Source: a virus (taxonomy: Duplodnaviria; Heunggongvirae; Uroviricota; Caudoviricetes). From it: DNA of 30,633 nucleotides. Position 1 is the first letter of the stretch, and each line of letters starts with the position of its first letter. The stretch is taken from positions 1 to 30,633 of the IMG/VR virus record IMGVR_UViG_3300029888_000014. The stretch is one strand, 5' to 3'. Made by a program: the position numbers. This document shows positions 21,001 to 24,000 of the stretch, piece by piece.

Positions 21001-24000
21001 TTTGCCCATACCGGCGGCTTACCATCCGGATACTGGACCTTGTTTGTAAAAACTACGCTTTCAATAAATTTTTCCCCATAGCAACAAGGGCACTGCTTTT
21101 TACTCGCTGCGCTGCGGGCATAATCCTCAAAAGCGTACGAAGCCATAATGCGCATCACTACCGGTTTTATTTCTGCCGGGAGTTTTCTTAACGCCGCCAC
21201 GCGATCACACCGACTGAGTGCATATTCTGTCAGCAATTCTGTTGCCCGCTCTCTGTCATTCATACTAATGCCCATTTTCCCAAGGAACGCAGAAAAACCC
21301 ATCTCAGCCCGATTTTGTGTCATGCCCTGCGCGGCCATCACATCAGTGATACTCAGCGCATCTTTTGACGTTGAGGCCGATGCATCGGTCAGACCAGGGG
21401 ATTTTGGGGAGTAGTATTTCGGTAAATCTTCCAGTTTCATTTTTTGACCTGCTCTTCATGCATTATGGGGTAAATCTTCACCCCCAGACGTCCACCAGAT
21501 ACTGGCTGACCACGAACGATATTGATTTCATCAAACTGCTCATCGTCCATTAACACTCCCGCATGCGTCAGCGCATCCAGCGGTGCTTTCAGGATATTGT
21601 CCAGGTCGCGACGACGCTTATCCGGTGGCTCTGCAATCACCTTTATCGCCAGCCTTCCGGACAGGCTTAATTTCAGCCGCTGCTGGCGAACAATAAGCGC
21701 CACAGCCCGGCGATAACGCTTTCCCTCCTCCGAGATAAAATATGTGCTGCCACGGCGTCGCCAGTAAGTGTTCACCGTCGGCGGGTAAGGTAAAACCAAA
21801 TCTATGAGCATCAGTCACCTCTTTTACCCAAGCACGCCAGTTGCAAAGGCGTGATCAAGAAAACGAAAAATTAAATCAACCTGAGAACCATGCTTTTCTT
21901 CGAACGCCAGCGGATCCGCATGAAGATCGTTGTGATGCTCCCGACACAGCGGTAGCGTGAAAATATCGTGAGATTTTGTCCCCATTCCGCCCTGACCATG
22001 ACCAATCAGGTGATGGGGATCGTCGGCTGGCTTACCACAACACGCACACGGCTGTGTCTTCACCCAGCGTGTGTATTTCTCGTTAACCCAGCGGCGACGT
22101 TTAGGTCGTTTCATGAAAGATTCCGGAGACTCAGGATCAACGGCAATGCTGACCACCGTCTCTTCCTGTGGCGGGTTTTGCTGGTGGGCGTGAGGCAGCG
22201 GCGCAAGATTTTTTGTGCGCTGCTTCAGTATGCTGGTGGCGGTCTGCTCTCCCGGTACGATGTCGCTTTCACGGTACATTGAGCGGATTTTTTCCGCACG
22301 CAACCCCAGCGAACGACGTAATACCGCTTCCGGTAGCGCGTCCGCCACCTGATTGCGGACCGCCCACCAGGATAATTCAGCCAGCGATAATTCCCGTTCC
22401 TGCGAGCCATTCATTGCATGGCGTATGACGTCAATCATCCATGCAGACAGGTTTTGGTGAGCAAGTTGCCCGAGTGATTCGGAGGTCTGGTCGCGCAGCT
22501 GGTTGTCGCAGTGCCAGCACAACACCATTGCGCCGGTACCATAACGGTGAATGACGGTTTCACTGTGGTGATAATCGCCGTGTGGCCACTGGCAGGATTT
22601 AACATGGCGCAGTAACCAGTCAGACAATGCGCCAGCACCACCAGCAGCACGAATCACTCGTTCGTCGCTGAAAAATGGCAGTAATGATTTATCCTCCGCC
22701 AGCGGCTGGCGAACGGCAGGAACGACCCCGGACGGCAGATTACGCATGCTTTTCGGTTCAGGCTCCACCAGCACTCGAGGGTTATGAAATACTTGCATGG
22801 ATTCACGGCCCGGCCTAAGGACCACCAGCCCGAGTTCCGGTACCAGAACAGGTCGAAGTAATATCCGCACGTTACCTCCAGATCCGTTGCTGGTATGTGC
22901 GGGATGGGCGCGGTGGGCGTTCGGAATAAGGGAGCCTGACATAGATTATCCAGTGACGATAATCGAGGCTGAGGGCTTTCTTAATCTCGTATCCGCGTCT
23001 GCGATAGTTATGAATTAGCCATTCGGCCTGTTCTTCAGTACATGGTGGGTGTTGGTACCAGTCGGTTTTAAATGCGTGTGAACGCCGCTCATGCCGGATG
23101 GCAAGGTCGGTATCAGAATTGTGAAATTTGGTTTTGTGCGCCATCTGTTTTCTCTGCTGGCGCAGCAGGTGTCAGGTGTTCAGGCTGACGTGCGAATTGT
23201 AAACCAGAATGCCAGGAAAAAACAAAACCCGCCGAAGCGGGTTAAGTGCGGGTGCGTTGAGGATGCCTGACACATCAGAGGTGGCGAGGGATTTCTCCCC
23301 CGCCAGGTCTCTTACTCCTCAGGTTCGTAAGCTGTGAAGACAGCGACCTCCGTCTGGCCGGTTCGGATTCGTACCTCGCAGAGGTCTTTCCTCGTTACCA
23401 GTGCCGTCACAATGACGGTTAAACAGATGACGATCAGGGCGATTAACATCGCCTTTTGCTGCTTCATAGCCTGCTTCTCCTTGCCTTTCGGCACGTAAGA
23501 GGCTAACCTAGATTTGCCGTTCATAGATTGAGCCTCAGATTAATGTTAAGCGTCTTGCAGGACGCGTAATGTTAACTGGGGCTTTTCTCTATCTGCCTTT
23601 GGTGTTCATGCCTGAGACAGATAGCCTCAAGCACCCGCTGCAATTCTACTTAACTCTCCTTTTCCCGCAAACCGTTTTTATCCCCAGCGGCAAATCGAAT
23701 ACACCACCAGCGCCACAGCCATTGCGATTCCTGCCGTTGTAAATGCCTCAGGCCAGGTCATCGTAAAACATCCTCCACGCTTATCAGTCCATTTCGTTTC
23801 AGGTAATCCATCGCCATCTCCGGTAATTTGCAGTCTAGATTAGCTTTTTTCAGTTGACTGACCAGTCGTTTAACCCACATTGTTAATTCGCCAACCTGAT
23901 TACTGGATGCTAGTGGATTGTCGGCTTTACCCAGAATGACAGCACAGCAGGCCTCTTTGAGTACCCAATCAACAGCATCTTTCCATGCTCCTGTTTCGAC

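Follow-up and report, generated by a model that had tools for sequence, protein, structure and literature searches.

Since the 1980s the hok/sok family has been a textbook paradigm, with the locus of plasmid R1 (parB) as the paradigm locus. One of its defining features is a Hok/Gef toxin of about 50 amino acids (aa) with an N-terminal transmembrane helix. Here we describe a member of this family in the caudoviricete record IMGVR_UViG_3300029888_000014 of IMG/VR, of which the whole stretch of 30,633 nucleotides (nt) that we analysed is called the window. Positions 23216-23671 on its minus strand very probably constitute an intact hok/mok/sok type I toxin-antitoxin module of the hokD/hokW lineage, working in the manner of R1. 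This reading draws on the sequence of the locus, its open reading frames (ORFs), family membership, predicted folds, conservation and synteny. All the parts described for hok/mok/sok loci can be placed at definite coordinates, far beyond what chance would provide, and every family-defining feature open to a computational test is present.

The closest described systems are R1 itself, hokW-mokW-sokW of phages 933W and Sp5, and hokD (relF) of the Qin prophage in E. coli K-12. The R1 elements are used here as defined by Le Rhun et al. 2022 (PMC9841398), where fbi is the partner of tac, and the Shine-Dalgarno (SD) sequence of mok that of ucb, in the full-length mRNA; in the truncated mRNA tac pairs with ucb, and the mok SD with dcb. 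The nascent R1 mRNA forms a metastable 5' hairpin and dcb overlaps the sok promoter, a mutation of which falls in dcb (PMC9841398). Takada et al. 2021 (PMC8621323) found HokW to be toxic and the locus harmless together with its own sokW. Mutation of the sokW -10 box restored toxicity, sokW supplied in trans gave partial rescue from HokW, and sokW was partly Hfq-dependent; HokW shares 44% identity with R1 Hok (PMC8621323). The truncation of Qin hokD by relBE has been described previously (PMC6379469).

The hok coding sequence (CDS) of the window runs from 23467 to 23312 on the minus strand (51 codons and a stop), is preceded by the SD GGAG (23480-23477) and encodes MKQQKAMLIALIVICLTVIVTALVTRKDLCEVRIRTGQTEVAVFTAYEPEE. 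The protein matches Pfam PF01848 (HOK_GEF) over profile positions 1-42 of 42 with 82.9 bits (E 1.2e-23, cut-off 22), in agreement with the toxin size and domain of the hok/sok family, and is 100% identical to K-12 HokD. A HokD peptide identical to it was toxic when expressed as a control (bioRxiv 10.1101/2025.08.07.668861). The mok ORF (23524 to 23312, minus strand; 70 codons, found by ORF scan) is an N-terminal extension of the hok frame and ends at the same stop, as in the mokW layout of 933W. Its own SD, GAGG (23533-23536), lies 8 nt 5' of the mok AUG. The frame is open, SD and AUG both align with those of R1, and coupled translation of mok and hok would be expected. A preliminary description of this DNA, made from the sequence alone, had named a 51 aa Hok toxin, an overlapping mok frame and a downstream hairpin with a U-run; all of them were found, the hairpin and U-run at 23243-23216 (minus strand).

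A megablast search of the locus against phage records returned 107 records. Two of them, 933W (AF125520) and VT2-Sakai (AP000422), show about 93% identity to the window; their annotation lists mokW and hokW together with a 'SokW antisense RNA' of 71 nt. From promoter to fbi, the window shares about 93% nucleotide identity with hokW-mokW-sokW of 933W/Sp5. It has the same 51-aa/70-aa layout, with mokW and hokW ending at one stop, and the sok promoter hexamers, hok SD, tac, ucb, dcb and fbi are identical in 933W. Each of the two loci belongs to a lambdoid prophage of E. coli. The long hairpin of Sok is the same except at a single loop position, where the window has T and 933W has G, whereas the Hok C-terminus reads ...FTAYEPEE in the window and ...FVDYESEK in HokW. 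The Sok 5' tails also differ (GCCGUUCAU... in the window, GUUCAGCAU... in SokW), because mok codons 2-6 do. Homology ends right after fbi, where the window has a terminator and 933W has none: compared with window 23216-23249, 933W (L001, about 2480-2510) is without the terminal hairpin and U-run that are present in the window, in Qin hokD and in R1. As a separate observation, codon 47 of hok (Tyr47 UAC, 23327-23329, minus strand) stands in UUACGAA, with a tRNA-Arg-anticodon-like UACG motif that also occurs in hokW (CUACGAA); A-to-I editing of hokB mRNA by TadA, and similarly of the hokC, hokD and hokE mRNAs, yields a second cysteine (10.1101/2025.08.07.668861).

On the plus strand, the sok promoter was assigned by identity to 933W/Sp5. 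It extends over 23481-23509, with the -35 box TTGCCT (23481-23486), a 17-nt spacer and the -10 box TAACCT (23504-23509); an R1-type locus has TTGCGC-17-TATCCT at the equivalent place. In Sp5 the sokW -10 box was mutated with primers YO-421/422, from TAGGTTAG to CCGGCTCG on the hok strand (PMC8621323), and alignment shows that the box mutated there is the TAACCT box, identical in the window. The preliminary description had listed this hexamer pair as a weak candidate; judged by alignment, it is the experimentally supported sok promoter of the family. It had also expected an antisense Sok RNA on the plus strand across the mok start and hok leader (about 23480-23600), and the transfer of coordinates from 933W sokW, which is 71 nt long and starts 9 nt inside mok, agrees with this: a Sok transcript of about 71 nt is predicted at 23516-23586 (plus strand), starting 6 nt downstream of the TAACCT box. 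Folding of 23516-23590 on the same strand leaves 9-13 nt at the 5' end single-stranded, followed by a long hairpin and GGGGCUUUU (-31.5 kcal/mol, z = -5.3). The predicted antisense RNA would therefore combine a promoter of the tested type, placed in mok, with a tail and a terminator hairpin.

The covariance-model search proposed in the preliminary description gave a clear match on the leader: Rfam RF01794, 'sok antitoxin (CssrC)', covers 23462-23636 on the minus strand with 110 bits (gathering score 59, E 1.9e-24) over model positions 1-157 of 157. Since the match lies on the hok-sense strand and the last consensus positions of the model align with the hok SD and AUG, RF01794 marks the hok mRNA leader here, not the antisense RNA. 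The model is matched at full length, but the real Sok would be on the reverse complement strand, at 23516-23586, inside the match. No Rfam family was found on the plus strand, even at E <= 1; the position of Sok must rest on homology. Automated annotation based on Rfam would place 'sok' on the wrong strand, and the plus-strand Sok needs to be added manually.

A candidate hok promoter could be recognized from sequence at 23643-23670 (minus strand), with the -35 box TTGCGG (23670-23665), a 16-nt spacer, the -10 box TAGAAT (23648-23643) and +1 at about 23636. In 77 viral loci TAGAAT is preserved together with a TTG-type -35 box at an unchanged distance, also where the sequence further upstream bears no relation to that of the window. 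The 5' end of the mRNA was set by the RF01794 start at 23636 and by alignment with the R1-type 5' end, and the 3' end by the terminator; the predicted full-length mok-hok mRNA is about 415-420 nt long (23217-23636, minus strand). The intrinsic terminator (23216-23243, minus strand; terminator scan) consists of a 7-bp G+C-rich hairpin (23243-23226) and a U-run, AACCCGCTTCGGCGGGTT plus TTGTTTTTTC. It is the sole terminator-like site in 23100-23800, and the same terminator is present 3' of Qin hokD.

Folded from 23636 to 23220, the full-length RNA reaches -175 kcal/mol with z = -6.8 against shuffles, and its minimum free energy (MFE) and centroid structures both contain the long-range pairing of tac (GGGUGCUUGAGG, mRNA nt 1-12, 23625-23636, minus strand) with fbi (CCUCAACGCACCC, 23250-23262, minus strand), 12 bp with one bulge. 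In the same fold ucb, the mok anti-SD (AAGCCCC, 23578-23584, minus strand; aligned with R1 AUAGCCCC), contributes AGCC.CAG to a pairing with CUG.A.GGCU, which contains the mok SD. The long leader hairpin (23538-23577, minus strand), or sokT region, is the complement of the Sok terminator hairpin, and four divergent relatives show compensatory changes at 3 of its pairs. The first 28 nt alone give -14.9 kcal/mol (z = -4.1), forming the predicted metastable hairpin of the nascent transcript (23609-23633, minus strand) in which tac pairs with GUCUCAGGCA directly downstream; the R1-type control forms the same hairpin. In the 3' untranslated region (3'UTR), hairpin 1 (GGCGGGGGAGAAAUCCCUCGCC, 23283-23304, minus strand; aligned with R1 GGCGGGCGCAGGCCCGCC) probably protects the 3' end of the truncated mRNA, and mutations in the equivalent R1 stem-loop abolish toxicity (PMC9841398).

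When the RNA is truncated after hairpin 1, the resulting 359 nt refold, again in the MFE structure, into tac/ucb and mok SD/dcb pairings. The mok SD is sequestered by ucb in the full-length mRNA and by dcb in the truncated one. The dcb core AGCCUC (23499-23504, minus strand) abuts the sok -10 box, overlapping it by one base (23504), and the loop of the SD/dcb hairpin contains the complement of Sok +1. Both states of the predicted switch are MFE structures, the truncated one for a presumed 3' end after hairpin 1. As a positive control we folded an R1-type hok/sok locus with an identical Hok in the same way, and obtained the same architecture (z = -9.9).

The comparison with R1 extends to the order and spacing of the functional elements, which are the same as in the window; a three-way alignment confirms the shared order. 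The same folding method gives R1 the same full-length architecture, and likewise the metastable hairpin. The R1 logic of tac/fbi, ucb/SD, tac/ucb and SD/dcb pairings (PMC9841398) matches that of the window. The two loci differ in that the 5' hairpin loop of the window is 16 nt shorter and its Sok/sokT hairpin 19 nt longer, and R1 is on a plasmid, the window locus on a prophage. Their tac and fbi elements differ by compensatory changes, with GGCGCUU/AAGCGCC in R1 against GGGUGCUU/AA(C)GCACCC in the window. Damage to the folding elements of the hok mRNA had been named in the preliminary description as the sign of a dead locus; fbi, tac and ucb, checked by folding, are all present and intact, so that this objection does not apply.

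Conservation among relatives also supports the reading. Scanning IMG/VR with the Hok peptide yielded at least 576 stretches that encode it; 80 loci were kept, all with identical Hok. The full promoter-to-terminator mRNA is held by 73 of these 80, giving 62 unique sequences that are 87-99.8% identical to the window. Across the 62, tac, ucb and the sok -35 box are invariant, and fbi, dcb and the sok -10 box nearly so. Nucleotide diversity (pi) is 0.006 in the hok CDS and 0 to 0.02 in tac, ucb, fbi and the sok -35 box, against a non-coding mean of 0.06. All 12 tac/fbi pairs are kept, with only 3 changes from G-C to G-U. A covariation test of tac/fbi, ucb/SD, tac/ucb and SD/dcb in this set shows constraint, not covariation, because the key pairs do not vary. 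Among complete E. coli genomes, at least 80% of the promoter-to-terminator locus is found in 3928 of 5426 (72%). In total there are 12442 places with the hok locus, spread over 4943 genomes (a median of 2 and as many as 10 in one genome), the window copy being up to 99.8% identical to copies in other genomes; RefSeq/PGAP names window-type copies hokD.

We now propose a mechanism for the locus, drawn by homology with plasmid R1 hok/sok and Sp5 hokW-sokW. The modest promoter TTGCGG-16-TAGAAT would give rise to a stable mRNA of about 415 nt, in which the metastable 5' hairpin would hide tac during transcription. In the finished full-length mRNA, tac/fbi and ucb/mok SD would be paired, and the molecule would be neither translated nor bound by Sok. 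Slow 3' trimming would remove the terminator and fbi, whereupon tac would pair with ucb and the mok SD would pass into the dcb hairpin, the loop of which is the presumed Sok target; the refolded truncated mRNA would then expose this loop and the mok translation-initiation region. The unstable Sok of about 71 nt (23516-23586, plus strand) would pair with it through its single-stranded 5' tail and cover ucb, the mok SD and the mok start, blocking translation of mok and hence the coupled translation of hok, and marking the duplex for RNase III. Should Sok synthesis stop, possibly upon prophage induction, prophage loss or transcription shut-off by an infecting phage, the stored truncated mRNA would be translated, and the 51-aa Hok would insert into the inner membrane and cause its collapse or depolarisation. 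We infer killing by Hok, neutralisation by Sok and RNase III cleavage of the duplex for the window copy because this toxin action is known for the identical HokD peptide and the 93%-identical hokW-sokW; its transcripts, their 3' processing, its toxicity in this context and its role are argued by the same analogy.

The Qin prophage shows what this locus looks like when shortened. Its gene order in K-12 is Q (ydfT), DUF968 (ydfU), rem, hokD, relE, relB, as in the window, where YdfU finds a homologue with 85% aa identity over 349 aa at 21827-22870 and the Q homologue lies at 20622-21440; in place of rem the window has an unrelated 90-aa ORF (phrog_1212). The Hok proteins are 100% identical, and over 23218-23481, a stretch that takes in the hok SD and the terminator, DNA identity is 98.5%. 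Homology stops at window 23481, which is the first base of the sok -35 box and 14 nt upstream of the hok AUG, and in Qin relE follows. Qin hokD is without the hok promoter, tac, ucb, mok start, mok SD and the whole sok gene; the window has them all and so differs from a leaderless, Qin-type hokD. The preliminary description had noted that Qin hokD sits beside relBE, which is indeed directly upstream of it as relE-relB, with hok belonging to the relB operon, and had seen no relBE-like ORF in the window. In accordance with this, K-12 RelE and RelB, compared by tblastn with the window as a whole, gave no similarity beyond chance (E 5.4 and 0.75, respectively).

Because relBE stands beside hok in only 2 of the 80 viral loci with identical Hok, and because Qin homology ends at 23481, the window copy is the common intact form, and Qin hokD the truncated derivative at the syntenic site. 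The missing relBE is the normal state and not a peculiarity of the window locus, since it is Qin hokD that forms the truncated exception to the full-length form.

The setting of the locus bears on its role. PHROG and Pfam matches, by which we assigned gene order, place it in the nin region of a lambdoid prophage, where it is flanked by the replication genes on one side and DUF968-RusA-Q on the other and points the same way as the early-right operon; the prophage setting given in the preliminary description is thereby confirmed. In 933W, hokW is found at 58.4-58.9 kb of 61.7 kb, at the right end and beside L0136 and L0139, whereas the window copy lies between the phrog_660 ORF and phrog_1212/DUF968; the proteins encoded by the upstream neighbours of the two hok genes are unrelated. 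By sequence and position the window copy is a paralogous or allelic copy of the hokW lineage, not the same locus. For hokW-sokW itself, sokW is reported to vanish after RecA-dependent induction, with HokW preceding the endolysin by about 1 h. Once the locus is deleted, growth arrest comes about 40 min later and half as much phage is released; assistance to lysis and to the release of phage in induced cells is the only role measured for this closest homologue (PMC8621323).

We favour the same role for the window copy, in which Sok would be lost after RecA-dependent induction and Hok would speed growth arrest, lysis and release. Because the locus lies inside the early-right operon and is co-oriented with it, read-through from pR after induction would plausibly run head-on into the sok promoter and shut Sok off. 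In 933W, whose hokW is close to the right prophage end, this would not apply. As a second role, the locus might stabilise the prophage post-segregationally, and prophage maintenance and abortive infection are both possible.

Several points weigh against reading the locus as a working module. A generic sigma-70 scan of 23100-23800 on both strands returned no site, and by consensus both promoter hexamer pairs are weak; the consensus thresholds of the scan are too strict for both family promoters, and for that reason we accept the sok and hok promoters through homology to the tested sokW and through conservation. The key helices are invariant in close relatives and receive no support from covariation, and the compensatory evidence for tac/fbi comes from the R1 comparison only. 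The characterised hokW sits elsewhere in its phage, and its induction-linked behaviour may not transfer. Moreover, intact elements do not guarantee activity. The locus might be physiologically silent, fully repressed like hokA, hokB and hokC, with no killing after segregation, induction or infection, and a hitch-hiker in recombining lambdoid prophages. Such passive spread would fit its being very common and multi-copy, and chromosomal hok loci showed neither post-segregational killing nor a rifampicin response in the work cited in bioRxiv 10.1101/2025.08.07.668861. Deletion of hokW-sokW, too, left normal growth unchanged and altered phage yield by a factor of only two (PMC8621323). We nevertheless consider silence unlikely, given the strong purifying selection seen in the low diversity of the toxin CDS and of tac, ucb, fbi and the sok -35 box. 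Neighbouring non-coding positions vary while the hok elements hold, and the 93%-identical hokW-sokW does make Hok after induction and changes the timing of lysis (PMC8621323).

A different function is conceivable for an active locus, namely that it serves mainly as an abortive-infection or exclusion moron: a lytic phage would stop transcription, Sok would decay, and the hok mRNA would be translated and kill the cell first. This mechanism requires only elements that are intact here, and hok is about four-fold enriched in prophages (bioRxiv 10.1101/2025.08.07.668861), but the same survey found no enrichment of hok beside defence systems. R1 hok/sok on a high-copy plasmid lowered T4 plating by 42% and plaque size by about 85%, according to work cited in PMC8621323; this effect on T4 is modest, was seen at high copy number, and belongs to a plasmid locus and not to one of the hokD/hokW type. 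We find it quite unlikely as the main function. That the window holds a decayed remnant, like leaderless Qin hokD or the K-12 hok loci disrupted by insertion sequences, is highly improbable. Decay is common elsewhere: Qin hokD has lost everything upstream of window-equivalent 23481, some phage copies have insertions or exist as fragments only (H1; H75-H81), and 933W hokW is without the terminal hairpin. In the window, on the other hand, both promoters, tac, ucb, the mok SD and ORF, dcb, the hok SD and ORF, hairpin 1, fbi and the terminator are uninterrupted, and copies in other genomes are 99.8% identical. Because all elements are intact, decay is essentially excluded, and the module with an R1-like mode of action stays the preferred reading.

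Against this background of constraint, one segment of the mRNA stands out among the relatives. Diversity peaks at hok mRNA nt 106-127 (window 23531-23510) with pi 0.32, in the most diverse 15-nt segment of the whole mRNA, compared with the non-coding mean of 0.06 and with 0 for tac, ucb and the sok -35 box, all with an identical Hok throughout. The hypervariable stretch comprises the spacer between the mok SD and AUG, mok codons 2-5 and the sok discriminator, and complements the first 15 or so nt of Sok; the mok AUG itself is invariant. At least 11 distinct Sok 5' ends exist, with a median of 6 in 15 positions different, and the tail variants include GCCGUUCAU (window), GUUCAGCAU (SokW), GUAGAGCAU and GUCUAGCAU. 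When folded locally, all 14 alleles of the target segment keep the SD/dcb hairpin of the truncated fold, with an inner stem round the invariant mok AUG and a variable loop.

Diversifying selection on antisense specificity might account for this pattern, co-resident prophages being then unable to neutralise each other's toxin; we put this forward tentatively and regard it as doubtful. If true, the window allele (GCCGUUCAU...) would be one 'incompatibility type', distinct from that of SokW. Only two same-genome pairs were available, one with identical and one with different Sok tails. A recent survey of Hok covered the toxin CDS, and neither Sok nor mok (bioRxiv 10.1101/2025.08.07.668861). The mok frame also varies in another respect: in 8 of the 62 unique mRNAs (L061, for example), mok is out of frame with hok and has 19 codons (MRHIEISLLRTERSRRSRL), its stop apparently, by coordinates, overlapping the hok AUG as AUGA. 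This group would represent a coupling geometry other than that of the in-frame 70-codon mok of the window.

The locus is already known in kind and adds nothing new in kind, since its lineage is annotated in 933W and VT2-Sakai, was characterised in 2021, bears the PGAP name hokD and, to at least 80% of the locus, occurs in 72% of complete E. coli genomes. Its value for annotation is that the window copy is the full-length counterpart of the truncated hokD of K-12, which explains the missing relBE. To the early-right (nin) operon of the prophage it contributes two autonomous promoters and an intrinsic terminator, and also a potential lysis- or killing-assisting function on induction.

The remaining genes of the region fit the lambdoid order. 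A CI-like repressor (27477-28115) is encoded on the plus strand; all the following are on the minus strand, from a CII-like activator (26734-27231), a replication initiator (25592-26668) and a Ren-like protein (25129-25551) to small ORFs (24270-24621; a DUF7167 ORF and a 58-aa ORF) and the phrog_660 ORF (23758-24273). The hok/sok locus (23216-23671) comes next, followed by the 90-aa phrog_1212 ORF (22872-23144), DUF968 (21824-22942), RusA (21437-21811) and Q (20619-21440). The longest DUF968 ORF (372 aa, start 22942) shares 71 nt with the 90-aa phrog_1212 ORF. When aligned with it, the 349 aa of YdfU point to a GTG at about 22870 as the real DUF968 start; this GTG abuts the stop of the 90-aa ORF.

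Upstream of hok, a hydrophobic 27-aa ORF is found at 23678-23761 (minus strand; MTWPEAFTTAGIAMAVALVVYSICRWG). At its start it overlaps the stop codon of the 171-aa ORF that precedes it, and its end lies inside the hok promoter region. It has no family match and is possibly a small membrane protein. The ORF is kept in 933W and about 16 of the 77 viral loci and absent from the others, which speaks against hok and the 27-aa ORF forming one module. A larger module in which hok would move together with its upstream gene was likewise rejected: the 171-aa ORF of the window and L0139 of 933W are unrelated.

Some further RNA matches were discarded. In a local search, isrK aligned over its full length with the hok 3'UTR (23222-23303, minus strand; hairpin 1, fbi and terminator) below threshold (27.2 bits, E 2e-4, the gathering score being 50); we rejected it as a generic arrangement of two hairpins and a U-run, Gifsy-1 IsrK lying downstream of antQ in an unrelated operon (PMC4825925). 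Matches to rsmX, ceN48 and CRISPR-DR28 were put down to chance.

Just downstream of Q, the region 18730-19320 resembles the stx-flanking region of Shiga toxin (Stx) phages. It contains tRNA-Met, tRNA-Arg(tcg) and tRNA-Arg(tct) (19071-19320, minus strand), STnc100 (18786-18994, minus strand; 131.7 bits) and AsxR (18730-18782, plus strand; 63 bits, exactly at threshold). The space ahead of the 656-aa phrog_143 ORF (16607-18577) is too small for stxAB, and by appearance the prophage is related to Stx phages but lacks stx. No complete E. coli RefSeq genome carries the window at 99% identity or more, the best match having 89% coverage and 97.5% identity, and the prophage is a mosaic that is not exactly represented among these genomes. 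Its closest genomes include that of enteroaggregative E. coli (EAEC) 55989. In the 3 kb round hok the best match is 96.6% identical, and for the hok locus alone this figure rises to 99.8%.

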